Shown here in pieces: positions 3,464 through 62,663 of a DNA stretch of 64,000 nucleotides; positions within the stretch are counted from its first letter, which is position 1, and each line of letters begins with the position of its first letter. The notes under the pieces were generated by a model that was not told the origin of the DNA, searched no databases, and was given only the letters and a program-made list of their open reading frames with translations. The DNA comes from Bilabrum cf. latius (Eukaryota): the NCBI GenBank assembly GCA_965178125.1, contig OZ237760.1, forward strand, positions 744,001 through 808,000, read 5' to 3'. Both the position numbers and the translations under genes were made by a program.

Positions 3464-3466
3464 GAT

Positions 3467-10884: not shown

Positions 10885-12543
10885 TCACCCCATCGCCTCC
10901 TCCAGCAGCTTCACGCACTCCTCATGCCCGCCCAATCGAGCCGCCTCCAAAGCGGTCACCTCGTCTCCCGCCCCGTCCACCTTGCCCCGTACCACCAGCG
11001 CGCCCGCCAGCTTGCCCAGCCTGAGCCTCCTGGCCAGCTCCAGAGGCCTGCCCTCGCTGGCCGCCGCCCACGCCAGGCCCCTGTCCTGCAGGCCCCGGCC
11101 CGCGTGCCTCCACCGCACGACTGCCCTCGCCCTCCCAGGCACCGCTGCCGCCATCCCTGCCTCCCATCCCTCGAGGGCTTCCTTCTTTCTAGTGCCCGAC
11201 AGAATCCGCTGCAGTTTTCGGTGGATGGCCAGGGCCACTGCGGAACTAGGGGCGCCGCGCCCGCACCCCGTGATGACGGTGTGCCAGAGGACCATGGCAG
11301 CCTGTACGGGCATGGGGCCTAACAGCTCGGACGCCTCGCGAAGCGCGGCGCCTTCTGCGGAACCGTCCTCCATGCGCTTGACGTAGACGATAGCCTCCTC
11401 CTCGGTCATTTTCTCGTCGCCATAGTAGCGGGCCACGAAGCATAGTCGCCTGATGTTGAGGTCCAGTCTGTCCTTGACGGCGTGCCGGTCGAATATCTCA
11501 AAGCTGGCTGACCACGGCAATTTGTACTTGTGGTCCATGACAAGTGCTCGGGCGAGCACCTCTGGCAGGTTGTAGGACACCGGGCTCTGCCGCGTAAGCA
11601 GGAGAGCAACTGCCTGCAGGCAGGGTCGCAAGCACAGCAGGCAGTCAAACTTGTGCATGGACTCGCTCGCGTACTTGCTGACGCATGGGTTCGCACCGTG
11701 GTCGATCAGGTAACTTAGGTAGGCAAGCGTCTTGGGCCCGGATCCCTCGGCCCAGTACCGCGCATTTCTGCAGGCGTAGTGCAGCAAGGACCAGCCCCCC
11801 GACGACAGGGCGTTGATGTCAGCCCCTACATCGAGCAGCAGGTCCAGCTCGGGCTGGAGGTAAGAGGAGCAGCAGCAGTGAATTGGAGGTGAGCCGCCCT
11901 GTGAAGTCAAAGGGAAATATGTTTCTTAGTTTCGAGACACCTGCTGTGCGTAGTAGTGTGACACACGCCACTACAGAATACGAGACGAGCTCACCCAAGC
12001 GGGCTTCCCGGGATTTGCACCAGCCTTAATTAACAGATCGATCACTTCCTAGCGTCTTGCACTCTCCTTAATCGGGCTCTCGACCCCGCAGCAAGCAGCT
12101 ACAGACTCGAAAGCCGGGAACAGTAGGGGGTTGTACAGTGCAGCATGAATAGGGTATCCTGAACTCGGATTTGCGCCGAGATCTAAAAGTAAGGCTACCA
12201 TGTCTCTTTCCATGCAATTCGCAGCGATCTCCAGGGGCTCGGACAGCTGAAACCGCTCAGGATCGGTGGACTCTAGCTTCGCTCCTGCAGCATGAAGAAG
12301 ACGTACAAGTGAGGCTTTTCCAGCTCTTACAGCAATTCCAATAAGACTGATAGTGACACGACTATCATTCGGCGACCCGCGAAGGCTCATTTCGACAGGG
12401 TTTCCGAGAGCGAGGTAGCTCTACAAGGCCTGTTCCTGGTGCGCCTCGTCCGCATGATACAGCTGGTTCCAAGCTGCCGGAAATGGCTTCGGTAGAGAGT
12501 CTGCCGGAGAAAAATGGTGTGTAGGAGCGAAATTGCATTCCAT
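10885..12543 (-). CDS. Ankyrin-repeat protein (paralog B)
   Basis: ATG 12543, intron 11994-11899. Repeats ALLLDLGANP, R*EVIDLLIKAGANP, LLLDVGADINA, YLIDHGANP and terminal TALEAARLGGHEECVKLL. TAG at 12421 and 12049; TGA 10885. Confidence 0.75.
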
Positions 12544-12684
12544 TCGCGAGTGTGCAGCCTGGCACTGAAGCTAGTTGTTCCAGTCTCGGTGTGACCCACA
12601 CGAAACCCGGAGCCACGCAGCACACGAGACAAGTGTTCGGTTGGGAGCACGCCCACCCGGTTTTTGGGCTCGCCGCCCTCCAGA

Positions 12685-14963: not shown

Positions 14964-17900
14964 TCACACGAAGTAGTGCGGCGATACCTCCAGGTCGCGC
15001 AGGGCGGCCGACTCCTCCCTGTCAAACCTCTGCGACTCGCGCTCCCAGTCAGACGCGTGCGTCCGCCTGAACTCCTGGAAGGCTTTCTGCACCGACTGCT
15101 TTACCTCCCGCTGCTTGTCCGAGGCCCCGCGCCGTGCCAGGGCTGCTGCAAAGGGCGGCAGCCACCTGGGCACATCGTACGGCTGGGTCTGCAAGATGGC
15201 CCCGGCTCCCAGCGCACCCCCGAGCCGCAGCCTGCGAGCGCGCTGCCAGGCGGCCTTGACTCCCGCCGCCGCGTCCTCCGATGGGGCAGGCGCGTTGGCC
15301 CCTTTGGCCGCCTGTCTCACCAGAGCATCCATCGCGTCCCTGCGATCCACAGGGGCCCAGCTCTGGCACGCGCTGCGCAGCGCAGCCGCGGCAGATTCCC
15401 TCACCTCGGCCTGTTTGTCGGACAACAGTCTCCTCAACCCGGCCTCCAGCCTCGCCCTGCCGCTCCCCGCCCAGAGCGCCATCCACCGGGTCGACATGAG
15501 CGCGGTCCTGGCAGCCGCGCCCTCGCGCACGCGCCACACGCGGGAGCCGCCTGCACCCTGCAGGTGGTCGAGCATGGCACCCGGCCCCGTGTGCGCGGCG
15601 CCTCCGCCCAGCGGAACATCCCCTCGCAGCCCACGCCCCCCTGTGAGCTGCTCCTGACCCGCCTGCAGCGACCGGGCTGCGGCTGCCTCGGACAGTGCCG
15701 CCGCGAGCGCGCTCGCTGTGGGTGCCTTGCCCTTGGCTGCACCCCCTGCTGTCTGCTTGTCGCCTCCCGAGTGACCCCCTTCTGCCTGGCCCGCGGCATC
15801 CAGCAGCCCGTCCACCTGCGCCGGGAAGTACCGCCCAAGCACGCTATCGATGGCGTGCTGGGCCTCCTTAGCCGTGTCCTCGTCCCCACCGAAACGGTGC
15901 TGCGCGTGCAGCAGCCTACCGACGGCAGGCATTGCCATCAGGTCGGCAATGACCCCACCGGCACCGCTGGCCGCAGTGGCCGCGGCCAGCCCCACCCTAA
16001 GCTCCGACAGAGCCACCGCAGCGGCACTGTCCTCCTCATCCTCACCTTCCTTCTTTTTCTCTCCCTCATCGGCGGTCGCCTTGCTCTTCTTTGCGAGTCC
16101 TGCCGCGATCGAGGTGGCGCGGACGGGGTCTGGAAGCAGCGCCACGCTCCAAGCCGCCACCCGCGCGGCCCTAGCAGGGGGTCCCAGCGCCACGGCAGAG
16201 CACAGGACCTTCCCGGCCGCCTGCCTCGCATCGTGGTAGGCGAGGGGCCGCGCCTGCAGGGCGTCAAGAAAGCACGCCCGTGCCATCGTGGAGGCATCGC
16301 GCCCCTCGTCATCGTCATCGCCCTCTGCTCCGCCTGCGCCAGGACTGGAGAGCCTGGCGCTGGCCTCCGCCCCCTGCACCACCATGAGCAGAACGGTCCA
16401 CTTGATGTGCCGCTGGGCCGTGTAGTGGAACCCGGGAATGCCTGCGCTCGAGCTGAACCCGCTGCTGCTGCCTGCTGCACCGTGGCCCTTACTCCCTGAC
16501 AGGGGGGCCTGCAGCAGACAGGAAGCGGCGCGCCCCACGACTGCGGTCGCGAGGGGCTCCCAAAGCACCGCGGGGAGGCTGCCGATGGCGGAGTCCAGCA
16601 TAGAGGCCCAGTCCCCTGCCCAGCCGAGGGGGCATCCCTCCAGGCCGGGTACCAGCAGAGTCTCGGCCAGCACGGCAAGCTCCGTGCGCCACGACCCCTT
16701 CGGCTCTACCGCCCCCGCACCGCCATGCTCTGCGGTCTGCTTGCCCGCGGCAGCCTCGGCCTCCCTCGCTCCCCTGTTGGACTCCTCAACGGCAGCTGCA
16801 TCGGGAAGGGCGATGGACCCGAGGACAGGACCCGAACCAGAGCCAGACCCCAAGGCTGCGCCGCCGGTGCCCTACGCACCCTCGGCTGCCTCTACCGCTG
16901 CCGCATCCAAGACGCGCGGGCGGGACGCCCCCGTCCCGGCGCCTGCCCGCCAGCCAACCTCGACGGAACCGCGGTGAGCTGCCGCCCGCGCCAACCCGCC
17001 GAAGACCATTGCAGCTGTCGCAGAGCACGCCCGCTTCTCTCCGATCCCCATCCTCTCCCTCTCCTTGTCCTTTTCCTGCCCCTTTCCCTCTGGCGTGGCG
17101 CTGCCAGTCGCTGCGCCACTACTGCTGCCACCGTCCTCGGATTCGGCCGCAGCCCCAGCCCCCGCGCGCTGGAGCAGCTCGCGCGCGCTCGCGACCGCCT
17201 GTCGGCCGAAGCCCTCCCCAAAGCAGACACGCGCCGCCTCGAACAGCCCGGACGTCTGTTCCGAAGTCGCCACGCGGCGGCCGCCCCCGCCCCCAGCGTC
17301 GATCTGCGGGCCACGCGCCGCCGCCGGCAGCAGCCCCCAGTACCCCGAGCCTGGCAGGCTCTTGCAGTTCTCCACGATGTTGACACCCTGCGAGACGAGG
17401 GCCTGCCCTGTGCCCGACCCGTAGCTCTGCGGGCCGGAGGACGCCGACCCCGACGCCGCGCCCGCGCTGGCTTCGGGCAGCGACTGCACCACCGCCGCCA
17501 CCAGCGCAGAGACCCACGGAAACGACCCCACCTCCACGGCCCCTCCCTTCTCGCCGGCGAACATGGCGTAGACAGAGGGTGCTTCCTTCTGCAGCATGGC
17601 GGGAGCCAGCTCGCCGATGCTCACGGGCGCCGCTCCAGCGCCTCCTGCTGCAGCTGCCCTTGTCTCGGCCTCCTCGAGCGCCCGCTTCTGCACCGAGGAC
17701 AGCAGGTGCCCCAGCACGAGCAGAGAGGCCTTCCGCATGGGCGCGACCTCTGATAGGATCCCGCGGACGGCCCAGCGCCACAGCAGCTCAGGGGCGGGGA
17801 GGCGCGCCCTTGATCTCGTCGACAGCAGCAGCGGCGCCACGGAGCTGGCCGCGAGCTGCTGCCTCCAGTTGGCGGAGGAGGAAGGCAGCGCGCCCGATGG

Positions 17901-26175: not shown

Positions 26176-28218
26176 ATGAGACGAGGCTTGATGTTGACAG
26201 TGGTAATAACTTACCTGCTAGCCAGCTTTACTAGGTCACAAGTTACGATTGACCCCACAGTGGCTCGATTTGTAGAGCAGGCACGCACTTCAGTTAGCGC
26301 GATCGCGACAGAAGCGAAGCGGCTGTACGACAATCGGTGCGACGCGCAGTGCTCTGAATGCGTTATTAATGCCTGCAGGTCTGGCTTTCGCGGGCAGCCC
26401 GAGGACGAGCAGTGCTTGCTGCAATTCTCGACGTCTTCAGTATGCCCGGCTCCCGGCCAGACGCTGCTGCCCGACGTGTCCGCTGTCCGGATTGCCGAAG
26501 GGGTAGAGCTAGACCCATCCGTAGATGCGGGCGCTTTGGAAGACGCTTGCACGTACAGCGACCTCTCGTCGACCTTCCAGAGCAACTTCAACGCCCTGCC
26601 TGACGTCCGCTGGCAGTACTTTGCGACCGTGCAGGGCGTGCATAGGACCTATCCAGCCAAGCTCTGGAGCATCAGCGGCGAGGACACGTGCAACCCGTAT
26701 GACCCGCGCCGCCGCCCGTGGTTCGTGTCCGCCGCGTCGGGCCCGAAGAACGTGATTTTGCTGCTCGACGACAGCAGCAGCATGGGCATCGTTGACGAGG
26801 GCGAGTCCAAGCAGAGGATGCAGCTCGCAGCAGAGGCGGCAGCAGACGTTCTCTCCACACTCACGTCGAGCGATTTCTTCGCTGTGCTCCGTTTCTCGGA
26901 CCGGATCACCTCCTGGAGCACCGAGGGGACCACTGGCATGGTGCGGGCCACGGATGCTCACCGCGCCGCCGCGCTGGCCTGGGTGAGGGACACGAGGCCG
27001 CAGGGGTCCAGGACCTCATTTGCGATGGGGATTCAAGAGGCCGTGAGGCAGCTGGACGAGGCCATCGCCAACGATTTCGAGAATACTCGTCACACCAACT
27101 GCCTGAGCACCGTCGTGATGCTCACAGACGGCCAGGCCCAGGACGGTGACGGGGCCGTGGAGGCCGCCGCGCAATTGCGGAACCGGGACCCGCAGACCAT
27201 CCTATTCACCTACTCGTTCGGGGAGTCCGCCGCGGCGCAGGACCGCGACAACATCGGGAAGCAGATGGCCTGCGCAGGGGGCGGCCTCTGGCTGGGCGTG
27301 CCCGGCAGCAGCTCGCTGGCCAGCGCCATGTCGCAGTACTACCAGTTCGTGGCCGGGCTGCAGGCGGATCGCTCGGGTGCTATTGTGTGGTCCGACTTGA
27401 TTATCGACGCCAGTGGGCTGGGCCTGTCGGTGGTTGCAACCGCACCCGTGTACTCGGACGACGGCGTGCTGGTGGGGGTGGCGGGGACGGACCTCGCCAT
27501 TGACGACCTGGGTGGAGACAGCGCGAACCTGAATCTGCTGACGTTTCTCAGGGACAGGTCCAGCCAGTGCGCGGCCGTTGTTCCCTCAGAATGCCTGCTC
27601 CAGCGGCTCCGTCAGGCCGCGGCCCGGCGTGTTGGAGGCAGGAACATGCAGGACAGCAGCATCTGCTCCTTCTCCACCAATGCATCCCACCCCCTCTACG
27701 CGCCGGCTCTGGACAACTGCACCGCGGCAGGGAACAGCACAGGCACTGGCAGCGCCGCTGGGTGCCCCGACGGCCGCCCAAGGGCCCGCCTGTGCCCCGG
27801 CGAGGACATCAACCTCGAGCTGTTCAAGCAGGGGGCCTGCTGCGGCGAGCCCAAGGACGAGAATGAGCTGCCGGTGGCCGTGGTGGTGGTGGTGGTGGTG
27901 GTGTGCGCGCTGGTGGTGGCAGTGGCGGTTTGGGGCTGGTGCGCGGGCTGGTGCGAGGGCGAGGGCGACGGCAGCGCGCATCCAAGAGGGCGGGGCAACG
28001 GGAAGGTGTCACCTAGAACCGCGGCTGCGATGCAGCACGTGTCGGGGGGACGCATGGTCGCTGATGACCCGAGGCACGGCGGTTCCAACCAGCCAGGGGG
28101 AGGTGGCCAGCCCGGGTACCAGGGGCAGAGCCAGAGCCAGAGCCAGCAGGGACCTGGGTTTGGGGTATCTAGCAGTAGCGGGGCCCAGTGGAGTGACGGA
28201 CACTAGGGGTATGCCTAA
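26176..28218 (+). CDS. VWA + Cache-domain type I membrane protein (calcium channel alpha2-delta / CACHD1-like)
   Basis: Signal peptide, WQYFAT, YDPRRRPWFVSAASGPKNVILLLDDSSSM, MLTDG, LVGVAGTD and a poly-Val TM segment. TAG at 28204, then GYA and TAA 28216-28218. Confidence 0.85.
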
Positions 28219-28278
28219 GTGAATGGGGATGGGAGTCGGGAGTGACTACAGCGATGTGATGCATCTGGGGCTGCTGCT

Positions 28279-28435
28279 TAGAACACTGTGGACAAGGGCT
28301 CAGTGGATCTACTCACACAGGCGAATAGTATAGAACACTGTGGACAAGGGCTCAGTGGATCTACTCACACAGGCGAATAGTATAGAACACTGTGGACAAG
28401 GGCTCAGTGGATCTACTCACACAGGCGAATAGTAT
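28279..28435. repeat. Perfect 52-bp tandem repeat, 3 copies
   Basis: TAGAACACTGTGGACAAGGGCTCAGTGGATCTACTCACACAGGCGAATAGTA starts at 28279, 28331 and 28383. Confidence 0.95.
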
Positions 28436-31457: not shown

Positions 31458-34400
31458 TCAGTCGTCTGCCGCGGACATCCATTCCACTGCATCCCTAGCA
31501 CGCTGCAATGTATCGATGTCCCTAATTTCACTAGTCCAGGTGCTCGCGATACTGGTCAGCTTTCCCATGGGGCGACGAAGCGCTTGCCGAACGCTTTGCT
31601 GCACCCAAGCGGCCATTCCGTCGCCGGACCCGACCGTCCCCACTAGCGCCCAGGCGTCCTGCACCAGCCGGCCGCACGGTCCAGTCCGCCCAGCGCCGAG
31701 CACTTGCGCGCGAGCGAGCAATTTGGCGGCGGCGCCCCGCTGCAGCACGGCGAGCCGCTCCCAACCGGCGCCCGCGGAGGGTCCAAGCGCCGACTGCCGC
31801 GCCTGGCGGATTGCATCCGCGCCACCCCGCGCGCTCGCCGCCCCACCTCCAGCCCCACCCCCATCATTTGCTCCTCCGGCTCGCAGAAAGGCCTCGGCCA
31901 GCCCCGTGTCCAGCAGCGCCTGCACCCATCGCCGACCACCAACCGCCTCCTGGATGCTGGCACGGGGCTCAGCACGAGGCCGGGCATGAGGCTCGCCAGC
32001 AGTGGCACGGGGCTCAGCACGAGGCCGGGCATGAGGCTCGCCAGCAGTGGCACGGGGCTCAGCACGAGGCCGGGCATGAGGCTCGCCAGCAGTGGCACGG
32101 GGCTCAGCACGAGGCCGGGCATGAGGCTCGCCAGCAGTGGCACGGGGCTCAGCACGAGGCCGGGCATGAGGCTCGCCAGCAGTGGCACGGGGCTCAGCAC
32201 GAGGCCGGGCATGAGGCTCGCCAGCAGTGGCACGGGGCTCAGCACGAGGCCGGGCATGAGGCTCGCCAGCAGTGGCACGGGGCACTGGGGGGTGCGCCTC
32301 TGTGGGTGCAGGAGCTCCAGCCCCCGAGGATGGTTGTTCGCTGGAGCTCAGCGAACCTTCGCTGGGTCCTGTCCCCGGGCTGTGCGCCGCCTTGTCCGCT
32401 CCCGCCTCGAGAAGGCGATCGGACGCTTCCTGGGCCCGCACTGCAATGCGGTGCAGCTCCGCCGCTGGCCCGGGGCACACAGCGAGCAGCAGCCCCCACG
32501 CGACTTCCTCTTTCTCCTCCTCGCTACCATCTTCATCTTCGTTACCGTCTCCTCGACCCATCGAAAGCGCGGTCGTCGCAGCAGCAACCCCACGGCGGCG
32601 AGGCGACAGGAACAGGGCGCCGCCGTCCGCACTCGTCACACTAGATGCCCCCACCAACGCCCCCTGCCCGCTGCCACTCGCTCCTGCCGCCAGCTGCAGA
32701 AGCGGAACCAGCGCATGCGCGGCGCCGGCGGCATCCGCAGCCAGCGCCCCGAGCCCTGCGCTCACCTGTCGAGCCAACGCACCGCTTTGTGCCCCTGCCT
32801 CTGCCTCACCCGCAGAGCCTCTATCCCCTGCAGCATCAGCCACCGCGGCGGGACCCATGGAAAGAGCCTCGGCGAGCGCCCGGGCGACGGCCCCTGCCAC
32901 GGCCGCGGCTGCCTGTGCCTGCGCACCGCCCTCTGTGGGCAGCGCCGCCAGCCCGAGTCGGGCCACGTCCTCCGATGTGGCCCGGAGCTCCTGCAGCCAC
33001 GCTGCCGGTTCCGCTACCCCACGCAGCAAATGCGCGGCGCCCGCCTCGCCACCGCCGGCATCGCTTCCACTGCCGGTCGATTGCTTCGCAGCTCTCGCAA
33101 CGGCTGCCCGGATGCGGACGAACGCGCGGGGGATCTGGCGGCGGAGTCGGGTCACAGCGCGGTGAAGACGAGGCAGCAGCAACAGGGCCGCGGCGCCGCG
33201 CATTGCGGAACTTGCGGCTTGGATCGGGGCTGCCACGTGAAAGCCCCCCGCCGGACCCACCCGCGCACCCGGGAAGCCACCCTGGGGTGCACTCGCCACA
33301 CCTCCCTACGGTCCCGCATCGACGGATGTCTCAGGCAGGAGGGTCCACGCAGCCACGCCTCCCCCGCTGCTGCCTCCCGCAAACTCCAGCCACCTCTTGG
33401 CAATCGTCACACTGTCCCCGCTGATCGCAACCCCTCCGCTCCCAGCTGCACTGGCCCCGCTGCCGCCAGTGCCAGTGCCAGTGCCAGTGCCAGCGGTAGT
33501 AGCTATTGTTCCCTGGTGGGAGCCCACCCGCTCCAGCGCCGCCAGGGATGCTCGCCCCAGGGATGCATCGCACTGCAGCACGCGGGCCGCCAGCTGCAGC
33601 TGCAGCTTCGCTCGAGCCTCTTGCCCCTGCCCCTGCCCCTGCCCCGTCCCTGCCACGCCTGCGCCAGGCCCAGCATCAAGCGGCAGCAGTGGGAGCCCGC
33701 GCACCAGCAGCCGTGCCGTCATTGCGGAACATGCTGCCGCGCACCCTTCCGCCGCGAGGGACGCGCCCAGCCACGGAGAGAACGCGCAGGAAGCGCGCAT
33801 CGTGCGGGCGGCCGGGCCCAGGTCACTCGTCACACTTGAGCAGCGCGCGAGCATCGGGATCCACGGATTGCCGCCAGCGCCACGGTCGCCAGCGGCTGAG
33901 CTGGCTCCAATATCGCCCCCAGTGTCCCCATCCCCGCCGCTCTCCGAGTCTGGGCTGCCCACCTGCATCAGCGCGCGGGGCAGCTCGGTGGCTTCGAAAA
34001 TCGATTCCGGGTCCATGTCCAGCCCCGCGCCGGCTCCACCCCTCGGTCCCCCCGGAGGAGCGCCGCTCGCGGCCTGCAGCCGAGTCACCGGCCCCTGACC
34101 CTTCCACTCCTCCCCTGCCTCCGCGCGTCCTCCCTCCTCCCCCTCCTCCCCCTTCTCCTACTACTGCTCCCTCCCCCTCCTGCCAGCTGCAGCCCCGGCC
34201 GCACCCATGGCAGCACCCTCTCGCACCAACGAGAGCACCCTTGACAGTCCCTCTAGCGGCGGCCCAGCCTCAGCGGGCCACGCCGAGACAGACTGCAGCA
34301 GCTCAGCACCCAGTGCCCTGCCCAGGGCGGCCACCTGGGCGTAGGCGGGGGCACTGGCGCCCGACGATGATGACGATGACGTGGACGACGGGGCGAACGG

Positions 34401-37326: not shown

Positions 37327-38411
37327 ATGGCAGGGTGAGTCTGAACTGGTGTGACCTGGCGTGGATCTGGCTGGTGTGCAATATACTGCGCCACGGCAGC
37401 TCTGCGATGCTTGCACATGGCTTGAGATTGCTCTCAGGTTGGCGATGCAGGCTCCGTTCAGCGGCAGGCCACGTCGCCCGTAATTTTGCGTGTTGTGTAT
37501 TTTGACTGAATTCATCGCGTCTCTACCGAGGTTGTCTGCTTCGCAACTGCTGCTAACGCTGCATTCCCAACATGCTCAGTCAAGCGAGCTGGAGCGGATC
37601 CATTGGTTCTATCCGTTCGAACGCGCCACATTTTCGCAGATATGATAGAGCAATCACAGTGTTCTCCCCAGACGGGCATTTGCAGCAGGTAGAGTACGCC
37701 ATGGAAGCAGTGAAGCGCGGGGCAGCGATCGTGGGAGTGCGTGGGAAAGGCACGGTGGTGCTTGCCGTGGAAAGGAAGAGCACTGCAAAGTTGCAGGACC
37801 CTCGCACAGTACACAAGATTTGCCTTTTGGATAGCCACCTAGCTCTCGCGTTCGCCGGGCTGCACGCGGACGCCCGCGTGCTGGTGAATCGCGCGAGGAT
37901 CGAGGCCCAGTCGCACCGCCTGGCGGTGGAAGACCGAGCCACCGTGGAATACATGTCCAAATACATCTCGGGCATCTAGCAGAAATACACGCAGACGGGC
38001 GGGCGCAGGCCCTTCGGGATTACGACCCTCCTGGCAGGCACGGACGTCGACGGTCGCCCGCGCCTGTTCCAGACCGACCCCGCGGGTGTCTCTAGCGAAT
38101 GGAAGGCCCAGGCGGCGGGCAGGAACGGGAAGACCCTCCGCGAGTTCCTTGAGGCGAATTACGAGGAGGATGCGTCGGAGGAGGACTGCTGCGTGCTGGC
38201 CTGCCGCACGCTGCTCGAGGTGGTGGATTCCGGCTCCGGATCGATCGAGCTGCTGGTGGTGAGGGAGGCAGCCGAGGGCGCGACCGCGGGCAAGGTGAGC
38301 ATGGTGCCAGAGGATAAGGTGAAGGAGTACGTGGAGGCGGCAGAGAAGGCGACGGAGGAGGCGGCGGGCAGCAGTGGGGCCGCGAGGCCGGCGGCAGGGG
38401 GGAGCTCCTGA
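37327..38411 (+). CDS. PSMA7: 20S proteasome subunit alpha type-7 (alpha4)
   Basis: Exon 37327-37334, intron 37335-37639. [61 protein letters not shown] at 37977; TGA stop. Confidence 0.97.
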
Positions 38412-38695: not shown

Positions 38696-41600
38696 TCAAT
38701 CTACCCCTACTCCCACCCCTGCCATCTCCACCTGCTCCACCTCGGTGCTCCCGCTCCTCTCCCCGAGCAGGCGACTCCCCTTCGCTCTGCCTTGGCCGCC
38801 CCTCCGCTGCAGTGGGCCATCAGCAGCATCCCCATCCCCACCACCGACGCTGCCAGCGCCAGCAGCGCCCCTGCCCTTGCCGCCACCATTGATCCTCTTC
38901 CTGCCCTTGCCGCTGCTCCTTGCCCCTAGCCTCGATCCACCCGCCGGCTGCCCTTGTTCCCTCGCCTTAGACCCCGACTTGGACCCCGACCTGGACCCGG
39001 GGCTGGGCCGGATCAGATCCAGGAGACGAGTGCGGCTGCCGGCAGACACTGGGCCGGTGCCGCTCTGACCACCGGCAGTCGGTGTGGACGGGGTGGCGGG
39101 CTGTGTCGGAGCCGCGGGGGCCTGTGCGCTCGCCGTGCCAGGCGTGCCTGCCGTGGTGGGCTGTGGCCTGCCGCCCTGCAAATGCCCTCGCTCTTGCCCC
39201 GGTACTTGCCCTGGTCCTCCTCCCCTGCTTCGCCCACCTTTGCCTCCACCTCCACCTCCACCTCCGCCTCCCCGTAGCACGATGGGCGTGGAGGGGGAGG
39301 GCGATGTGGCCCCAGGGGAGGCCATGCCGTTCAGTCGGACACCCCCGGGGGATTTCCCCTGACCCCGCAGCGGGGATCCCCTTCTGGGGGCAGAGCCAGC
39401 CCCCCTGGCCCTGATCAAAGCCCGGTGAGTCGGTGGAGTGCCTGATCTTTGAGCCTATCGGGCATCCTCGCCCTCCGCCTCCTCCTCCTCTTCCTCCTAG
39501 TGGTACTCGCTTCCTTCCCCTTGCGGGGCGAGCTGCAGCTGCCGGCGAGCGCCAGACTCTGCCCTCCCCCTGCCCAGCGGTCTCGTGCTGCCGGCACTCG
39601 TCACACTATCACCAGCATGCCCCTGCCCTTGCCTCGTCCTCCCACCAGCCAGGCGACCGGCAGCCGACAGCCCACCAGCCGCGGCTGTCCTAGCCCTGTG
39701 CAGGCTGCGGCCCTGTGCATTCATCCTGTCGGTGCCCACAGTGGTCTGTGCCTTACCCCCAGTCCCTGTTCCTGTTCCTGTTCCCTGGCCCGACCGCAGC
39801 CTCGTCGCTGCGCGATGTGCCCCCGGAGAAGCGATGCTGCCAGCGGGTGAAAGAAACCGCCTGGCTGCCCCCGGAGTCACCCTGGGGCCGGCGCTGCGGG
39901 GCCCCGCGGTGCTTGCGGTTCGTGCCACGGAAGACCCCGGGGCGCGGGAACTGCCTGGCCTCTTGCTGCCGCTCCTGCTCCTGCTCCTGGCGCCTCTGGC
40001 GCTGCCCGGGCTTTCCTCCACTGCCAGCCGCGCCGGCGTGCGCTGGCCCTTCTCGAAGATCCTGAACCAGCCAGGGGTTACCGGGGAGAACCTCGCCTCC
40101 TGGCTGCCGAAGGGAACAACGGGCACGTCTGTGGGCGAGGAGGCCCGAGAACCCGGCCCGCCGCCATTGCCATTGCCATCGCCCCTGCCGCCTCTCCTGA
40201 CCCTCCTTCGCCTGCCGCTGCCAGCCGAGGACATGCCCATCGCCGTCTGTTTCATAGCCATCGCAACCTCATCCTCTTCCTCGTCTTCGTCCTCCTCTTC
40301 CTCATCGGCTGCTCGGCCACGCCTTCCCCCCCCCTCCATACAGTTGTCAGACCCGTCCCGCGCCCGATCCCTCCCCACGGTGCCTAGCCCGAGCCCGAGG
40401 GAGGGGGAAGTGGCAGGCCGGATCATGCGGTGCAGCCCCTTTCCCTGCCCCTGCCCCTGCCCCTATGCCTGGCTCACGGGTCTCTTGCTGCGGCGAGGCG
40501 AAGAGGGCGGCAGTCCCGCCTCCTGCCCCTGCTCCTGCTCGTCGCCTGACCCACCAGACTCCCCCGGCACCTCCTGCTCCTGGCCGACTGCCGAGGCCCC
40601 GGCCCGCGGGGGACCGTCCGTGTACGTCGCGACGTCCACGTCAACCCCCTGGCCGGCCGACTCGGAATTGGAATCGTCCACGTCCAGAGCATCCGCCGCC
40701 ACCACTGCGACATCCGTGCCATCGAGCACCCCCTCTTCTCTCCCTTGCTCCTCGTCCGCTGTCTCGATCTGTCTCGCCCGGTTGGCACCCTCATTGGCAG
40801 CAGTACTGACTGCTTCGTCCTCACCGGCAAGCTCTTGAACGCTTCCATAAGATCCACCCTCTGCCCCCACTTCCTTGTCAACTTCCTATTCCTATTCGTC
40901 CCCGCTGCTGCCGAGGGACAGCCCAGCCGAGGCGCTAGAGCCCGACATCGCATCGCCACCCCTCTGCTCCTGCTAGTCACCGTCCTCGTCGTTCTAGTCC
41001 TCTCGGCCTTCGCTGCTCACGCCCGGCTTCCCAGTGCGCCTGTCATCTTCATCTTCATTGCCGTACTCCACCACAGACCCCGCCGCCTCCACCTGACCCA
41101 AGCGCTGGCGTGCACTGTCACTCTCACCCCCACCGTATACCTCCACCACACGCCCCTCGCCGATGCCCGTATTGTCACTCGCGTCACTGACAGCCTCATT
41201 ACCGCACGGGCTGTTCCCTGGGACGCACCCCGCCACCGACAGCCTCAGCCGGCGCATCCCCTCGGTGCGGGGGCCGAGCCCGGGCGCGTGCTGCTGCAGG
41301 GCACGGTGTGACGAGTGACCACGCTCCGGGTCGTGTTCCTGCATGGCGGCCTCACCCCACTCACTGGACAGCGACCTACCCCGGCTGTGTCCGGGCCGGT
41401 GGCTGCTGCGAGAATGGCTCAGAATACCGCTGCTGCTTCTGCCGGCGCTCCGGTAGGACGGGCGCACGCTGCTGGTCCTGTAGCCCGCATGCCCACCACC
41501 GTCATCGTTCTGGCTCGCATCCGGGCTGACGTCGAACGCGCGGGCCCCAAGCACAGCTGCCGCAGGAGAGGGCGACACCGAGGTCAGAGTCCCTGCCCGG

Positions 41601-42409: not shown

Positions 42410-43563
42410 ATGCGCGCCAGGGTCGCGTGGGCCGGATTGATAGTAAGTTTTCGCACATAGACCTCTAGTTCATACGATAAATCGGGTCCAAGCACGCATT
42501 TTTGCTGTGGCGACTGCTTCATTCATCGCAGATTTTGCAAGCTAGTTGGGTGCTGTCGGCAGACGTCGCACTCCAGGGAAGCGAAGAATTGAATAGTATG
42601 CGAGTTCATGCAGCAGAGACCCTGCTCGAACGAGATAGCCAGCTCAACAGCGAGGAACGTCGAAGGGTGGCGCATTACATGGCTGCCGCCGCCCACATGC
42701 AAGACGAGGCTTCTTTGCGCCGAGGAGATAGCTCAATGTCAAGATAGCGCCGGCTTCAGGCTTTGCTAGAAACGGAAGAGGCTGAGGTGCCGGTCACGGG
42801 ACGGCCCCAGCGCGCGTGGGGAGGAGAGGGAGTATCGCTGGCGGCGCTGCGAGAGGGAGCCAGGCTAGCAGCAGAGAACGGAGCGAGAGCACATGCTGCG
42901 CTTCTGGCTAGGCAATCCAGCAATAGGCGACCAACCACTGCCGCAGCGCTGCTAAGTCTGGAGGCAGGGGCAGGTTCGAAGGCGGCACCAGCAGGCGGGG
43001 GCGGCAAGGGCGGGGGGGGCGGCAAGGGCGGGGGGGGCGGCAAGGGCGGGGGGGGCGGCAAGTCCAAGGGGGGAGGAGGCGGGGGAAAGGAGGCCATCAA
43101 GGGCCCCTGCGCCACGTGTGTGTTCATCACAGATCGGATCACAGCGGGGCAGACCAGGCTGCTCCCTCAGATCTGCCAGGCCATCGCCGACCTGGACCCC
43201 GCCGCCAGCAAGGACACGGCCGAGGCGGTTATGCACTGCAACAGGCTCATGGTCGCGATCGCGAGCGAGAAGGACAAAACGGTTGTGAACACTTTGTACG
43301 CGGCGCTCAACTACGGGTGCTTGGAGGAGAGGGAGTTTGGGGGCATCAAGCAGGTCACGATGCAGGCACCGTGCCCCTACGACGTCACGTGCTCGCTGCT
43401 GCACGTGCTGGACGGCGGGAAAGCCATGTGCAAGGCGCCGGAGAGGCCATTTGCCAATGAAATAGGGGTGGCTGAGGAGGGTGGCGGTGATCAGGGAGGA
43501 GGGGGGTCCAAGAATGGAGGTGGCGGCGGAAAGGGGGGAGGGTCCTAGGGCGGGAAGAAGTGA
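42410..43563 (+). CDS. Secreted Cys-rich protein with a saposin-like cysteine pattern and Gly/Lys linkers
   Basis: Signal peptide MRARVAWAGLI|ILQASWVLSA (intron 42443-42531), CATCVFI...ICQAI...CNRL...YGC...PCPYDVTCS. TAG at 42745 and 43546; TGA 43561-63. Confidence 0.6.
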
Positions 43564-51842: not shown

Positions 51843-52266
51843 GATGAACGGTGGGTACCATGGTAATGAGCCACTGGCAGGGGGAGCTTGAAGCGTTGTG
51901 CCAGCCACTCGTGCTAGTCGCATGGGGGATCCTACCCGCAGGCGCGCGGCATTTTTGTGGGATTTGAGGGGGCTGTGCTGAATGCCGAGTTGCAGGCGAA
52001 TTCGATAGCTCTCTATGCGTGTGACCACCACTTTAGGAGATCAATTTAGTAGTGCTGTGCCATGACCCTCCCACCCCCCCCCCCCCCCCTCCCGCCGCCG
52101 GCGACTCGACGGACAGAACCGGAACGCCTCGCCGGCCCTCCCGGGCTTGCACTGATAGCTTCTTAGAACTAGTACTCCGCACGCAGCGACCGATTTCAGA
52201 AGATTTTTCGTATAAGTTGTAGATCTTGTTCACTACCCCATATTTTGGCAGCGTCAAAGGCACACC

Positions 52267-55200
52267 ATGCCGAAAAAGAAGAAGGGGAAGGAGCTGAAAC
52301 TCCCAACCGCGCGAAAGATCGCCCGAGGGACTCCAGCAAAGAAAGAAGCTTGGACAGAATAGCTTGCTTCAAGATGTGCGGAGCTCATGAAGGGGCAATC
52401 GATGAACTATCGGGCTCGGGGCGGCGGTGCGTTTGCGTTGCAGCTGCTGCGTTCTGCTCCTGGCCTCAACGTGAACTCTTGGAGACACTCAAACTCCAGG
52501 ATGCCGTATTGCCGCAGGAACTTGCTTCAGTTTGCTGTTCGGGGCCATTGCGAGGAGGTGCTTCGACACCTGATCGTGGAACGCGGAGCGGACCCCGGCC
52601 TCCCTGACAAGCTGTCTGGGGACACCCCTCTGCACATAGCAGCCCACCGCGGATACACCATGGTCGTGGCCATGCTGCTATCACTCGGCGCCGAACCCGA
52701 CCAGGTCGGATACCGCGGCCGAACTCCTTGCCATAACGCAGCCGCAAACGGTCACGCCGCCTCTGTGTACCTGCTCCTGCGGGCAGGGGCAGATCCCCAG
52801 CTGGAGGACTCGTTCGGGAAGTCCCCGGCCCGGCTAGCACAGGCGTGGGACCGCCTGAACGCATGGCTGCAGCCGACAGACTCGGCCCGCCGCGCCATCC
52901 GGCGCGCCCAGCGCTCCCAGAGACCCCTCCTGCGTGGCGTGCAGGCCCAGCAGGACCTCGCCGAGGAGCTGCTGGCGCCCAGCAAAGAGGACCAAGAGTG
53001 GTTCGATCGGGTGGAGGAGGCAAAGGCGATGGCTGGGGAAGGAGTCGCGGGAGAAACGCACCGTGAATCCGGTGCTAAGGCTGCGGCAGGGGCAGAGGCA
53101 GCCTCTGGCGGTGCTGGTGCTGGTGCCTTATCTACCGCAGGGGCGCCCGCCCCGACCCATGCTACCGATGCCAGTGCTGGGGGGAGCAGTCACACGGCCT
53201 AGAGGACCCCTTCCAGTGGAAGCATGCTAGTCAGCATGGAGGACCTGCCCGCGCTGCCGAGCAGTCTGAAGCACCTGGAGGAGGACAGTGACCTTCCGAG
53301 TGCTGGTGCTGGTGCTGGTGCTGGTGCTGGTGCTGGTGCTGGTGCTGGTGCTGGTGCTGGTGCTAGTGCTGGTGCTGGTGCTGGTGCTGGTGCTGGTGCT
53401 GGTGCTGGTGCTGGTGCTGGTGCTGGTGCTGTTGCAGGGGCCACCGGGGCTGTAACAACGTCTAGTGGTGACAGAGCTAGGCCGAGTAGGTCCAGCGAGA
53501 AACGCCTCGAGAAGCCGGGTCAGGAGCATGAGCAGGAGCAGTATCAGGATCACCAGGCTGCAGCCAAGGAGCCGGATGGGATGAAGACGGGCACCAGGAG
53601 GACACAGGGCCAGCTGCTCCCGAGACACGGCGATGTTGGTAGTGATGCGACTCTCACTCGGCCTGAGGAAGCAGCTGGAACCGGCAGGAGCAATGAGCAC
53701 GCCACATCGCTCGATCGCACTCCCCAAAGCGGCACCACGATTGCCGCCAGCACCGGGTACGATGATGCGATCGTGTACGGAGACGTGAGCGAGGAGATCA
53801 GGCAGAGGCCGAGGTTGCCAGGCACGTACGGGGACATGAGCGAAGAGATCAGGCAGAGGCCGAGGTTGCCAGGCACGTACGGAGACATGAGCGAAGAGAT
53901 CAGGCAGAGGCCGAGGTCGCCAGGCACGTACGGGGACGTTGCGCATCCGTCCCCGGTACAGGTGCACCCCGCAGTGGCTGCTGCCGCTGCTGCTGGACGG
54001 GGCGCGGGCTAGCCACAGCCAACCCTTCATCCTATCCCAACCCAGTCGGCAGGTCCCGCCGCAGCCCGCCGCTAGATCTAGTCCGATGACAGCAGCCTGC
54101 AGATTCCTTCCGACATCCCGCAGGTGAGCGCCGACCAGGTGCAGCTGCTCGAGGAGATAGGCGCGGGTGGGTTCGGGATGGTGTACAGGGCCTCACTGCG
54201 GAGCATGCCCGGCACGCCTCTGGTGGTCAAAGCGCTCTACAGGGTGGGCAAACTGGACCAGGCTGAGAGGCGCGCCCTCATTGCGGAGACCCGACTCATG
54301 GCTCTGGCGGCCCGCCCGCCCCACGAGAACGTGGCCAGCTTTGTGGGATTAATCGCGAGAGAGGGCGGTCGGACGGCGGATGGGAGGCGACTCTCGTATG
54401 GCATGGTGATGCGGCTGTACGAGGGGGGCTCCTTGCGCGACCTGATCGAGGGTGTGGGCGTGCATGCGGGGAGTGCCAGGGTGAGCAGGGGCACGAGCGG
54501 TGGCCTGGGATTGAGTCGGTCGACAGACTCGGGAAGCGCGGGCTCCGGTTCCGGGTCTGGGTCTGGACCGCGCATGTCCAGGGGGGTGTCGGGAGCTGTG
54601 TCTTCGCCTCTAGTGACCGGGAAGTCGGCTCGCGTCCCTGGGGATGACGAGGACGATGGGGACGGCGAAGGCGATGACGAGGACGCTCGGCAGTCCATGG
54701 ACTACTGCCAGCGAGTCCCGCTGCAGAGAAGGCTGGAGATCCTGAGGGACGTGGCGCGTGGGCTGGCCTTCCTTCACCTGGCACAGCCGGGACGCCCGGA
54801 GCGGCTCGTGCACCGGGACCTCAAGCCAGACAACGTGCTGCTGACCACCCCCCATGTGCTGGCAACCAAGGGTGCCATTTCTGATTTCGGGCTGTCGGCC
54901 GTGCGGACCATGCACGGCCAGAGTTTGCTCTCTTCGGCTTCCTCCTCTTCAGCGAGAGAGGAGGCACCTGCCGAATCGTTGCCCCCAGTCGCCTCGGTGG
55001 CATACAGGGCCCCGGAGGTGTGGGGCACCTCAACGAGGAGGAAGAAGGAGCACAAGGGCGCTTCTTCGTCTTCTTCTTCCTCCTCCTCAACTCCCGCAAG
55101 GGCAAGTGGCGGGGCTGGTGCATCGTCCGCCTCGACCTCGACCGAGGGAACAGGCCCGGGTGGAGGTCATTCGGGGGAGGGCCACCCGCACCAGAGCGAA

Positions 55201-55662
55201 GGAACACCGGCCCTGACCCTAACGGAGCAGAGGCGAGCCGCGGCTGTACGGGCCATTCGGGAGGATCCCGCCGTGGACGTGTTCAGCTTCGGGGTGACCG
55301 CTTTCGTGGTGCTGACCGGGCTGGCTCCATGGGGCGGCGAGCGGTCCGTCGCTTCGCTGTACCAGGCCATCGTGATGGACCGGTAGGACATGCCCGGGAC
55401 CGTGCCGGAGTGGTGCGGGGTCCGTGCGGGCCACGCGGAGCTGGTGAGGACCTGCATGCGGTACGACCCGAGGGAGAGACCGAGCGCGCTGCGGGTGTGC
55501 GAGATGCTTGATCAACTGATCGAGGGGCTCTCAGCGGACCGAAGCAAGAGCGCTGGGCAGGGCGTGAGTGCTCGATTTCCAAGTGCATTGCATGGGAGTG
55601 CTGACGACGACGATGAAGCCGGGCCGGGGATTGACAACGAGTATTCCCCCATTGTTGATTAA
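52267..55662 (+). CDS. Ankyrin-repeat protein kinase (TKL-like), 1131 aa
   Basis: Ankyrin motifs GDTPLHIAAHRG and GRTPCHNAAANGH; kinase motifs IGAGGFGMVY, VVK, HRDLKPDN, SDFG, YRAPE, DVFSFG, CMRYDPRERPS. One frame through TAG at 52360, 53200, 54010, 54073, 54079 and 55384; ends TAA. Confidence 0.88.
53302..53430. repeat. (GCTGGT)n coding microsatellite giving an Ala-Gly tract
   Basis: About 21 hexamer copies inside the kinase gene linker. Confidence 0.95.
53775..53939. repeat. 51-bp coding tandem repeat, 3 copies plus a partial (YGDMSEEIRQRPRLPGT)
   Basis: Units start at 53775, 53826, 53877 and 53928 (partial). Confidence 0.92.
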
Positions 55663-55696
55663 TTGAATGCATCGGACATAGCTAGTGTTGTACGTT

Positions 55697-58273
55697 TCAG
55701 TCCCTCCCAGGCCTTGCCATGGGGAACTTGTCCACCACGGCAGCTGCCTCTCCCTCCACGACCACCTGGGCCCGAAGCAGCTCCACTGCGCCCTGTGCCC
55801 GCGCCTGTTCCACATGCTGGGCGGCGGCTTCCTCCCCTGCCATCTCGGGCACGGCCATGGTGTTGGTGGTGAACACGATCTCGTACTCCCCGGGGGCCGA
55901 CAGCACGTCCCCAGTGCGGGGGTGCACCACCCTGAGGGACCCCTGGTCCACGCTGAAGGTCACCTGCTTGGACCCGCCAGCAGGCACGAACACCTTGTCG
56001 TGCCCGAACAGCTCCAGTCGGAGGGGGTAGTCCGCCATCTCGGGGGCGGCCAGTGCCTTGGGCTTCCACATGGCCAGCACAACGACAGAGCTGGACACAG
56101 AGCCCGTGTTGGACACGGTCACGGTATACTGGGTGGCGGGGGCGCTGGGCAAAGCGGCTGGCATGCGCAGAGGCGCGGGCGGCTCCGGATTCCAGCTCAT
56201 CTTGAATGTGGTGTAGCTGAGTCCGGCCCCGAAGGGGTACACGACAGGCCCGTCGAAGTACCTGTAGGTCCTACCAGGGGCGCAGCCCATGCACATGCTG
56301 GTCATGTTCACCTCGTTCGTGTAGTTGGCGTGATACATAGTGAAAGGCAGCCGGCCCGCGGGGCTGTGGTCCCCGAACAGCACGTCAGCCACGCCCCTGC
56401 CCCCGTGGTACCCCGGGTAGAAGCTCTCCAGGATGGCGGGGGCACTGGCCTTCTCCGCGCTGATGTCAACCACACCTCCGTTGAGGAACACCACCACGGT
56501 GCTGGGCTGCACCGCCAGCACTGCCTGCACGAGATCGTGCTGCACGCCCGGCAGCTCGATGTCCTTGCGGTCGAGGCTCTCGCCCTCGATGCTCTGGTCG
56601 ATGCCCATCACCAGCACCGCCACGTCGGCCGACTTGGCGGCCCCCACAGCTGCAGCAAAGCCGCTCTTGTCCTGTGAGTTGACGTCGCATCCCTTCTCGT
56701 ACTGGGTGCTGCCCCCCGCATTGGCGGCCTTGATGGCTTCCTGCACGGTCTGGATGCAGGAGAGGTCGTCCCACTAGTCCCCCGGGCACAGCTGGCCCAG
56801 GTACGACGCCACCAGGGCGGTCTCGCTGTCCGCGTTGGGCCCGATGACCGCCACCCGCTGGCCCTTCTTGAGAGGCAGCAGCCCCCCCTGGTTCTTGAGC
56901 AGGACCGAGGCCTGTCTCGAGGTCTCCAGGGCCAGGGCCTGCGAGCTGTTCTTCCCGAACTCGCTGGTGGAGTAGTTCCAGTAGGGCTGGTCCTCCACGG
57001 GATCGAAGAGACCCAGCCGCACCCTCACTTCCATGGCGTGCTGCAGGGCAAGGTCCACGTCCGATTGCGCGCACTCCCCGTTGGCCACACCCTGCGCGAG
57101 ACTCTCCCAGTACACGGCCCCGCTGTCGATGTCGCAGTGCCCGTCCTTGACGGCCACGCACGAGGCCTACGAGGCGGTGGGGACGTACTTGTGCTGGCTG
57201 TAAATGTCCAGAATCGCGCTGGAATCGGAAGTCTGGTAGCCCTGGAAGCCCCACTCGTCACGAAGGACGTGCCTCAGCTCTGCGCTTGCGCTGGTGGGCA
57301 CGCAGGTCGTGTTCTCCGAGTCGATGAAGGCAACCGCGTTGTAGGACGACATGATGCTGGCCGCCTTGGCGTCCTGCACGGCTTTCTTGAACATGGGGAA
57401 ATAGGTGGCTCCCAGGTCATAGTCGGACACCCTGGCGCAGAAATCGTACCTCGTGTACCCGTCGCTGTCCTCGAGTGAGTATGCCACCCAGTGCTTGAGC
57501 GTGGCCACTGCCCTGAGGAACCGAGGGTCCTCCCCCTCCTGGACCCCCTTGGTGTAGGCCACCGCGTAGTCGGACAGCAGCAGCGGGTCCTCGCTCACGA
57601 CCTCCTGGGAGCGGCCCCACCTAGGGTCCCTGGGCTGGTTGATGGTGGGGCTCCACGTGTCGAGGCCAGCGGGGGGCCTCCCGCTCCACGAGTTGGCCTC
57701 GGGGCAGCCGGTGAGGTAGGCGACGCGGGTCTCCACGCCGATGACGTCTCCCATGGCCCGCCACATGGACTGGTTGAACGAGGCGCCCAGTGCGTTGGGC
57801 ATCGCGAAGCTGGTGGCGCAGCGGTTGTCAATGCACAGCGTCTGCACCCCGTGCAGCGAGTTTTGGCCTGCGGACAGAGTCATCATACACGAGCATGGGC
57901 GGGACCGTACCAGAGCGCACGTATCGCGTTATAGGCCAACTTAAATGCGTGCTTCCGTTGAGCCTCCTCGCCTGTCAGCTTCCTTACCCTTGTCCAGCGC
58001 TGGCACCCCTGCCTTGGGGATCCCCTGGATGTTGCCGCGCGGCCAGCCCCGGGCCGTAAGTAGCTACGGCTTGAGATCATTGTCTGCTTGCGCGACCACA
58101 GCTTTCGCCCTCTCTGATACCGATAGCTTCGTGTTGCAAAAGTCGTACTGATCGAAGCCAGGGCGGCAGGCCCTCGAGCTAAGCACCCCGGACCGGTTCG
58201 GATGGAACGGTGGCTCGATCATTGCGGTGCCGTAGCCCAGTATGATCGTGGTAATCGCGATGGCCAGCTTCAT
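55697..58273 (-). CDS. Glycoside hydrolase family 3, beta-xylosidase-like, secreted
   Basis: Signal peptide, NSLHGV, WSPTINQPRDPRWGRSQEVVSEDP, TLKHW, YQTSD, EGESLDR, PAGRLPFT, YPFGAGLSYTTF. Intron 57987-57868; TAG at 58064, 57167 and 56774; TGA stop. Confidence 0.92.
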
Positions 58274-61455: not shown

Positions 61456-62663
61456 TCACAGGATGAAGGGGATGATAGCTTTCCTGCGAAGCACCACCTT
61501 GTTGGGCTGCGGCAAGTCCTTCGCGTCCACACCTCCCTTCTTCACATCCTCGATCGCCTTCTGCTTGGCCTTCTCCTGCTTGACGTACCTCGAGTGCTTC
61601 TGCATCGCCCACTGGGTCATCTGCGCCAGCCCGGTGAGACCGAAGAGCCACCCGAATGCCATATTGGTCATTGCGCTCCAGATGACCCACGCCAGCACCT
61701 CGAACGTGTAGTTGGGGCAGGACACGAGTTCAAACAGGCCCCCGGTCACGGCCTCGCGCACGGCGATCCCCCGAGAGTCCTTCTTGGCCTTCTTCTGGCC
61801 CGTGTTGGCCGCTGCGAGCTGCAGGTGCGTCTGCAGGTTGAGCAGCTCCGACAAGGCGAACGCACCTGCCATCGCGTACAGCACAGTCTCGTCGTCCCCG
61901 TAGGGAGCCACGTAGGCTGGGTGGCAGAGCACGTAGGCGTTCAGGAGGGTGTATCCCCAGTAGTAGCCGCAGTTCTTGAACAAATTAGTGATGGGCATGG
62001 TCTCGCGCGAGAATTTGTGCACAAAGGCCGTCTCGAGGATGCGCTTGAGGTAGTGAAGCACCCAGGCGGCCACACCCAGCTTGGCGGCGAGCGTCCAGGG
62101 CTTGCTGGCGGCGTCATCGCCGAAGAAGAAACCGGGACGCAGAGCCATGAGAGCCATGATAACCATCGGTCCGCCGTACTCGGCGTAGAAGACGCCCTCG
62201 TATGGGAACTGCATGCCAATGTCCTTCAAGATCAGAGTTTTGTCATTGACGTCCATCTCGTTGAGAGTTTTCAGGTCGCGGTCGAATCGAATGGGGGTGG
62301 GCTTCTTCCCATCCGTGCCTTCGATTTCGTACTTGAGGCCCTGGCGCTGGCGGTGGATCCTTCGGACTGCGCGGGGACTAGACACTGGTGGGGATCACCA
62401 GAGACGATCGCTGGCCAGTTTCGTGCATGTATTGGCGCAAATGCCGGCTGTACGAGCTTTACCAATGCAGTTTACGGCTTTGAACGCAAATAATTGGTGC
62501 CAGGAGCGCAAAATGCGCGCTTTCCGAAACTCTCACGGTCTTTGTTGGACGCGATCTCTTCCTTCAGCTAGCGCACAGTTGTATCGCCTGGCATGGTCAT
62601 TTTCACGGGCTTCTCCATGTTCTTGCCACGCTATAGGACTACTTCAAACGATACATTCGCCAT
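61456..62663 (-). CDS. TECR: Very-long-chain trans-2-enoyl-CoA reductase (TECR/Tsc13)
   Basis: Ubiquitin-like exon 62663-62537 (TTVR*LKEEIA), KDIGMQF, EYGGP, HYLKRILETAFVHKFS, NLFKNCGYYW, LVSCPNYTFE, KAIIPFIL. TAG at 62631 and 62568; TGA stop. Confidence 0.93.

Follow-up and report, generated by a model that had tools for sequence, protein, structure and literature searches.

A nuclear genetic code that probably reads UAG as glutamine and ends translation at UGA and, rarely, at UAA

We analyzed a stretch of 64 kb of eukaryotic DNA (contig OZ237760.1, positions 744,001 to 808,000; hereafter the window, in which all positions below are counted) with respect to the meaning of TAG, TAA, and TGA in its genes, and in particular to a TAA at 55660-55662 that closes a gene for a protein with ankyrin repeats and a kinase domain. 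The G+C content is about 64% across the window and 56% in a lower-GC part at 1-4000. Matches to Pfam identify eukaryotic nuclear genes on both strands. The genes are long and mostly without interruption, and the few introns that can be defined are of about 100-120 nucleotides (nt), with ends of the form GTGAG or GTAAG...CAG. The genes recognized through Pfam are the following.

Plus strand, TGA stop at 10670-10672: Cse1/CAS exportin
10885-12684 and 12685-14130, minus strand: two tandem ankyrin genes
Minus strand: PSME4/Blm10 reading frame of 3,039 codons
26137-28218, plus strand: reading frame of a VWA protein
Ribosomal protein SA (RPSA)
37557-38411, plus strand: proteasome alpha subunit (alpha-7/alpha-4-type)
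SNF2 helicase
52216-55662, plus strand: reading frame of the ankyrin and kinase protein (hereafter the kinase gene)
Two GH3 glycosidases, one of which, on the minus strand, is called GH3a below
Minus strand: TECR-like reductase
ZGRF1-like helicase, start only

Our census covers the main coding segments of 21 complete genes, delimited by a codon-usage score, which was trained on the Pfam-backed genes, together with the Pfam matches. TGA ends 19 of these genes, TAA ends two (the kinase and VWA genes), and TAG ends none. Within the 15,353 codons of the segments there are 50 in-frame TAGs and no in-frame TAA or TGA; the frames of the segments are bounded by TAA and TGA, and within a segment the two zeros are thus true by construction. 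An independent test asks whether coding signal continues across stop-like triplets in all six frames (30-codon flanks, score threshold 0.1), and here signal was found on both flanks of 39 of 771 TAGs, none of 281 TAAs, and 5 of 1293 TGAs. The original prediction had counted 19 TGA and two TAA terminators in 21 genes and had described exons free of in-frame TAA; our census, made independently, arrives at the same terminators at the same coordinates, and the absence of TAA was likewise reproduced. TAG makes up 33% of the stop-like trinucleotides in the window, so that about seven TAG terminators would be expected in 21 genes, and the probability of finding none is 2.4e-4. The in-frame TAGs are spread over 17 of the 21 genes, including those for the proteasome subunit, ribosomal protein SA, and the exportin, and are accompanied by no frameshifts.

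Several lines of evidence indicate that these TAGs are read as glutamine. Pfam domains span TAGs in Cse1, the proteasome alpha gene, RPSA, the kinase gene, and both GH3 genes, and individual TAGs fall at telling positions.

37977-37979, plus strand: TAG in the proteasome alpha gene, in a column that holds only glutamine (Q, 91 of 120 homologs) and lysine (K, 29 of 120)
9650-9652, plus strand: second TAG of Cse1, in a mostly-glutamine column (Q in 77 of 145 homologs)
10607-10609, plus strand: third TAG of Cse1, 21 codons before the TGA stop at 10670-10672, read through
40463-40465, minus strand: TAG in a CAGGGG repeat (TAG GGG CAG GGG CAG GGG CAG GGA), a C-to-T variant of the repeat's glutamine codon

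Downstream of the third TAG of Cse1, the alignment continues into the C-termini of homologs, and P0261, a protein fragment of a close relative, has Q at the TAG itself. The window's own CAG and CAA codons in Cse1 fall in columns with a mean of 22% Q among the homologs, versus 5% over all columns. TAG is also found inside glutamate-glutamine repeats of the (GAA-CAG) type, where it is one base off CAG.

A search of metagenome contigs for DNA of the same lineage returned one contig, L001, which comes from a relative and is independent of the window. It encodes an ortholog of GH3a with 76% identity, and the six in-frame TAGs of this ortholog lie opposite CAA, CAG, CAG, CAG, GCC, and GCA in the window, that is, opposite a glutamine codon (CAR, where R is A or G) in four of six cases. 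A second gene on L001, of the JAB/MPN type, has four in-frame TAGs, so that the contig contains 10 in-frame TAGs in all and no in-frame TAA. Furthermore, protein fragments from other assemblies, 77% identical to Cse1, break where a gene caller using the standard code would stop; one of them, P0219, ends exactly at the first TAG of Cse1. These relatives bear on the possibility that the TAGs are not translated as such and instead stem from assembly errors or pseudogenes, or are restored to CAG in the mRNA by U-to-C editing. The correspondence between TAG and CAG would fit editing equally well. We nevertheless regard this explanation as exceedingly improbable, given that the 50 TAGs occur in so many genes, those for the proteasome subunit, ribosomal protein SA, and the exportin included, with neither frameshifts nor TAA or TGA beside them, that L001 has in-frame TAGs of its own at different codons, and that the fragments of other assemblies break exactly at such sites. 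We know of no nuclear U-to-C editing of this kind.

A number of alignments weigh against glutamine. The column of the first TAG of Cse1 is variable (among 145 homologs, K in 17, arginine in 16, threonine in 15, and others), as is that of the third; a TAG of the kinase gene aligns with leucine in two PDB kinases (CTR1 and MLK4) and with serine in P0127, a protein fragment of a relative; the TAG of RPSA aligns with threonine; the two TAGs of GH3a in the window align with ACC and AAA in L001; and mammals have K at the TAG column of the proteasome alpha subunit, which points away from glutamine. The alignments with residues other than glutamine appear to fall in variable columns, and in our judgment none outweighs the evidence for glutamine. 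Leucine was considered as the amino acid in its place, a candidate raised by the leucines of CTR1 and MLK4 and by leucine at the third TAG of Cse1 in three of three distant homologs. We rejected this assignment given that the proteasome column holds only Q and K, that none of the eight pairs of a TAG with its counterpart codon between the window and L001 involves leucine, and that P0261 has Q at the third TAG of Cse1. Judged from these alignments, UAG behaves as a sense codon, and the amino acid that it matches is glutamine.

The role of UAA is best seen at the 3' end of the kinase gene, where the following features lie close together.

52267-55659, plus strand: coding sequence for ankyrin repeats and protein kinase, starting at the frame's first Met, with six in-frame TAGs
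55660-55662, plus strand: TAA at the end of this gene, the only robust candidate for a TAA terminator in the window
55663-55872, plus strand: hypothetical read-through stretch past the TAA, 69 codons to a TGA at 55870-55872, of non-coding character
55697-55699, minus strand: TGA that terminates GH3a, which converges on the kinase gene; 34 nt lie between this TGA and the TAA

The gene matches Pfam Ank and Pkinase / PK_Tyr_Ser-Thr, its translation contains the motifs HRDLKPDN, DFG, and APE, and 45 further codons lead from the end of the kinase domain to the TAA. With the kinase gene and GH3a excluded from training of the score, codons upstream of the TAA have mean scores of +0.12 to +0.17 and the 69 codons downstream a mean of -0.47, and for the bases of the read-through stretch the GH3a frame on the opposite strand reaches +0.33. 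For most of its 69 codons, read-through would be antisense to the conserved C-terminus of GH3a, whose ...FPMARPGRD aligns with the ...FPMPRPGRE that closes the L001 ortholog; TGA is the terminator there, too. P0127, with 160 residues and 89% identity, ends in the same C-terminal ...YSPIVD as the kinase of the window; at the protein level, the position of the end is conserved in this relative. The kinase TAA sits where the coding signal stops and where the protein of the relative also stops, and there is good reason to consider it a true terminator.

An intron that would remove this TAA, with a donor GTGAGT at 55564 and an acceptor at 55700 or 55710, was considered and rejected. The window has 60 + 66 copies of GTGAG, which counts against the donor at 55564. 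The frame that would follow from 55711 scores -0.6, and the frame from 55701, with five TAGs in roughly 220 codons, scores +0.10 only because its wobble positions are common with GH3a.

Two side observations concern this gene and its neighbor. Only 34 nt (55663-55696) separate the stops of the convergent kinase and GH3a genes, and therefore their 3' untranslated regions must overlap. The kinase gene also contains perfect or near-perfect tandem repeats, at 53300-53435 of the form (GTGCTG) x 22.7, coding (Ala-Gly)n, and at 53775-53937 a unit of 17 residues encoded by 51 bp x 3.2.

The other gene assigned a TAA terminator, that of the VWA protein, is of little help.

28204-28245, plus strand: end of the VWA gene, with TAG at 28204-28206, three codons (GGG TAT GCC), TAA at 28216-28218, eight codons, and TGA at 28243-28245

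The protein has an unconserved tail of low complexity, and the coding signal has faded 22 codons upstream of the TAA. The terminator is ambiguous and could be any of the three triplets. Downstream of the gene, at 28279-28435, there is a perfect or near-perfect tandem repeat of 52 bp x 3.

Three further TAAs separate frames that belong to one and the same gene. Two are inside defined GT-AG introns, and the third follows a candidate donor.

11899-11994, minus strand: intron of 96 nt (GTGAGC...TTCACAG) in the second ankyrin gene, holding an in-frame TAG and an in-frame TAA (11926-11928)
57868-57987, minus strand: intron of 120 nt (GTAAGG...CCGCAG) in GH3a, holding the TAA (57941-57943) that closes the frame of exon 1

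Removal of the 96-nt intron would restore a junction that resembles an ankyrin repeat, and GH3a exons 1 and 2 (58276-57977 and from 57868, respectively) are both matched by the L001 ortholog. In the TECR-like gene, the TAA at 62472-62474 lies downstream of the candidate donor GTGAGA at 62536.

The points that weigh against a retained UAA stop can be set out together. There is one robust TAA terminator only, as the VWA TAA has a TAG four codons before it and a TGA nine codons after it. Neither of the genes ended by TAA has a C-terminus anchored by distant homologs, and the end of the kinase is anchored by one fragment of a close relative alone, known as protein and not as DNA. The absence of internal TAA also has to be read against the rarity of this triplet. 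We computed the number of internal TAAs expected if TAA encoded glutamine, using the ratio within an A/G-ending codon pair as a proxy.

CAA/CAG (glutamine's own, 0.096): 5.3 internal TAAs expected, P(0) = 0.005
AAA/AAG: 8.5 expected, P(0) = 2e-4
GAA/GAG: 11.5 expected, P(0) = 1e-5
TTA/TTG: 1.6 expected, P(0) = 0.2

The last of these proxies is compatible with a sense UAA, and the evidence from the missing internal TAAs is moderate and not decisive. The caveat attached to the original prediction, that high GC makes TAA rare in any case, was therefore well taken, as the probability of no internal TAA ranges from 1e-5 to 0.2 with the proxy.

These numbers allow an alternative to be weighed in which UAA and UAG both encode glutamine, as in table 6 of the National Center for Biotechnology Information (NCBI), and UGA is the sole stop, TAA being too rare in 64 kb of GC-rich DNA to appear within genes. 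It would agree with the 19 of 21 genes that end in TGA, with the TGA shortly past the VWA TAA, with the TTA/TTG expectation, and with the C-termini that are anchored by homology, all four of which (Cse1, PSME4, GH3a, and RPSA) end in TGA. In PSME4 the PSME4_C profile is matched through the last residue, in RPSA the 40S_SA_C match reaches to 4 residues from the end, the end of Cse1 is anchored by alignment to homologs, and that of GH3a by the L001 ortholog. Under this alternative, however, the kinase would gain 69 codons of strongly negative score that are antisense to the conserved end of GH3a, the coincidence with the end of P0127 would be lost, glutamine's own A/G ratio would call for 5.3 TAAs where none is seen, and L001 adds its 10 in-frame TAGs without a single TAA. 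Taken together, we consider a shared assignment of UAA and UAG to glutamine quite unlikely.

The predominance of TGA can be compared with base composition. TAA accounts for 18% of the TAA and TGA triplets in the window, from which 3.7 TAA stops would be expected in 21 genes, and two or fewer have a probability of 0.25. Composition suffices to account for the surplus of TGA, and no special cause is needed. The original prediction had presented TGA as dominating termination; the count of 19 to 2 stands, and composition is enough to produce it. As a separate observation, a second in-frame TGA directly follows the stop (tandem TGA-TGA) in PSME4 at 14964-14966 and in the TECR-like gene at 61456-61458, both on the minus strand.

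A different concern is raised by the position of TAGs near the ends of genes. Two lie within 5 codons of the stop, versus 0.34 expected (P = 0.047), and five within 25 codons, versus 1.71 expected (P = 0.03). One of the two closest is the following.

43546-43548, plus strand: TAG five codons before the TGA stop (43561-43563) of a gene without a name

This mild enrichment toward 3' ends weighs against a purely sense UAG, and TAG may have kept some function as a stop. Some genes, such as the VWA gene or the gene ending at 43561, might then truly end at TAG, with the codon carrying both meanings. No gene among the 21 needs TAG as a terminator, none of the four ends anchored by homology is at a TAG, and past the Cse1 TAG located 21 codons upstream of the stop, the sequence still aligns with the C-termini of homologs. 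The same enrichment would be expected if genes once ended at these TAGs and translation now continues through them to a back-up stop close by, and the TAGs near stops may be fossils of this kind. Moreover, in the published text on ambiguous codes of the Condylostoma and karyorelict type, the dual codon is described as depleted before the true stop (PMC11687900), whereas TAG in the window is enriched there, in a small sample. We therefore hold true termination at TAG in a subset of genes to be unlikely.

In sum of these arguments we propose, with a probability of about 0.8, that UAG encodes glutamine in this nuclear code and that UGA, as the main signal, and UAA, as a rare one, end translation. 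NCBI table 15 is the same code, with UAG as glutamine and UAA and UGA as stops, and the pattern is that of Iotanema. The window contains UAG in conserved coding sequences and at glutamine columns, no in-frame UAA or UGA, and, on thin evidence, a UAA terminator. UAG and UAA thus appear to be decoupled, as far as one solid TAA stop allows. The original prediction had held that UAA is still a stop and decoupled from UAG; this is upheld for the kinase TAA, which acts as a true terminator, and for TAG as a sense codon, and is not sustained for the VWA TAA, which is ambiguous. Its premise that UAA and UAG usually change together is right, though exceptions have already been published. Mechanistically, such a code would involve a glutamine transfer RNA (tRNA) with anticodon CUA, which would pair with UAG and not with UAA, and an eRF1 that has lost or weakened its recognition of UAG only. 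We infer both components because of the wobble argument in the published text of McGowan et al. (2024, PMC11687900) and the discussion of eRF1 in that of Panek et al. (2017, PMC5304391), and not from genes of the window, in which ARAGORN and Rfam detected no tRNA gene, Rfam gave no family match, and the Pfam-annotated genes do not include eRF1. The original prediction had proposed the same two components, in agreement with the reasoning of these papers.

With regard to the host, the proteasome alpha subunit, a single gene of about 250 residues, gave a tree in which the window and Cafeteria roenbergensis are sisters (support 0.94) and belong to a clade that also includes oomycetes (0.97). It is possible from this tree that the host is a stramenopile close to the bicosoecids. 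Cse1 gives no placement, as its full-length homologs reach at most 38% identity in an exhaustive search, fragments of close relatives aside. A word-based search with the same protein returned four matches of at most 32% identity, and the ten best names of the exhaustive search, a sponge, Chlorokybus, and metagenome proteins among them, do not place the organism. Further DNA of the lineage was sought in genome contigs, with no match, and in viral contigs, where SNF2 had no match and the proteasome alpha subunit had two weak and irrelevant ones (L002 and L003).

A reassignment of UAG alone to glutamine has been described before. In Iotanema spirale (Fornicata), as reported in the main text of Panek et al. 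(2017, PMC5304391), UAG encodes glutamine, UAA and UGA are stops, and eRF1 carries T32G; for the eRF1 of exLh, the change L69A is described there. The window resembles this case in that UAG alone is reassigned and to the same amino acid, in the lack of in-frame UAA and UGA, in the retention of UAA as a terminator, and in the mechanistic reasoning, with a CUA-type tRNA and an altered N-domain of eRF1. It differs in its stops, which are 19 TGA versus 2 TAA, in contrast to 104 UAA versus 15 UGA among 119 in Iotanema (PMC5304391), in its G+C content of about 64%, and in the single-gene tree that groups it with stramenopiles and not with metamonads. According to the text of McGowan et al. (2024, PMC11687900), the ciliates Hartmannula sinica, Trochilia petrani, and Protocruzia tuzeti also read only UAG as glutamine, and their codon table is identical to the one proposed here. 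In these ciliates UAA makes up 87-98% of stops, a heavy use that is argued there to fix UAA as a stop (PMC11687900), whereas UAA is nearly unused in the window. High GC, long genes, and spliceosomal GT-AG introns are furthermore not ciliate-like.

Codes in which UAG alone has moved to another amino acid are, in the same source (PMC11687900), those of the rhizarian exLh and of TARA ciliate metagenome-assembled genomes, with leucine, and of Scotinosphaera, with serine. They share the decoupling of UAG from UAA and differ in the amino acid, which is glutamine in the window. Codes that read both UAA and UAG as glutamine (UAR, NCBI table 6) are listed there for many ciliates, Ulvophyceae, Hexamita, Streblomastix, and Amoeboaphelidium (PMC11687900). 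The window is like these in the reassignment of a stop to glutamine and in the dominance of UGA as a stop, and unlike them in that UAA, a glutamine codon there, is absent from the 15,353 codons of our census and present once in the manner of a terminator. The type of code is therefore already known, and it is probably the lineage that is new. The departures from published cases of UAG-only reassignment to glutamine appear to be UGA as the working stop, a GC-rich genome, and an apparently different lineage. In full-text searches of the literature, we found no nuclear UAG reassignment reported for stramenopiles or for GC-rich non-ciliates beyond the cases cited, and no report of a nuclear code change in stramenopiles.

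Nuclear codes that split the meaning of UAG and UAA are rare, and they bear on the usual change of both together through wobble of the UUA anticodon and the recognition of both codons by eRF1. A genome that is rich in GC, terminates at UGA, and reads UAG as glutamine would contrast usefully with the published AT-rich cases that terminate at UAA. Such a contrast would show whether the separation of the two codons depends on UAA being a heavily used stop. We also raise, as a tentative and rather doubtful idea, that the lineage is part-way through a code change, with UAG captured by glutamine, UAA almost unassigned (absent within genes and at most one or two of 21 stops), and UGA as the main terminator. 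If this were true, UAA could follow UAG without hindrance, the TAGs near stops would be fossils of earlier TAG terminators, and the order of events in the evolution of UAR as glutamine, with UAG first and in a GC-rich genome, would be directly observable. On the practical side, annotation under the standard code fragments most long genes here and in relatives (P0219, P0261, and P0127), and we advise the use of table 15.

Some observations on the surroundings of these genes remain. On L001, the neighbors of GH3a differ from those in the window: upstream there is the gene with JAB/MPN and MitMem_reg (L001 1-987, minus strand, the one with four in-frame TAGs), and downstream, at L001 3947-4556, an AT-richer spacer where the window has the kinase gene. 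The relative thus lacks conserved synteny here, at a protein identity of 76%. The tandem ankyrin genes on the minus strand (10885-12684 and 12685-14130) have near-identical C-terminal parts of about 75 residues (...RWRHAGR.LQDRGLAWA.ASEGRPLELARRLRLGKLAG...KLLEEAMG), and judging by this similarity the pair looks like a recent tandem duplication or the outcome of gene conversion. The part at 74-1378, which is of lower GC, contains a sequence in two long direct copies, recognizable from a peptide that recurs in the translated frame; it has no Pfam match and little coding signal and is probably a non-coding repeat. Finally, a perfect or near-perfect tandem repeat of 45 bp x 7.2 at 31958-32283 codes a 15-residue repeat within a COG5-like frame of 1,944 codons.

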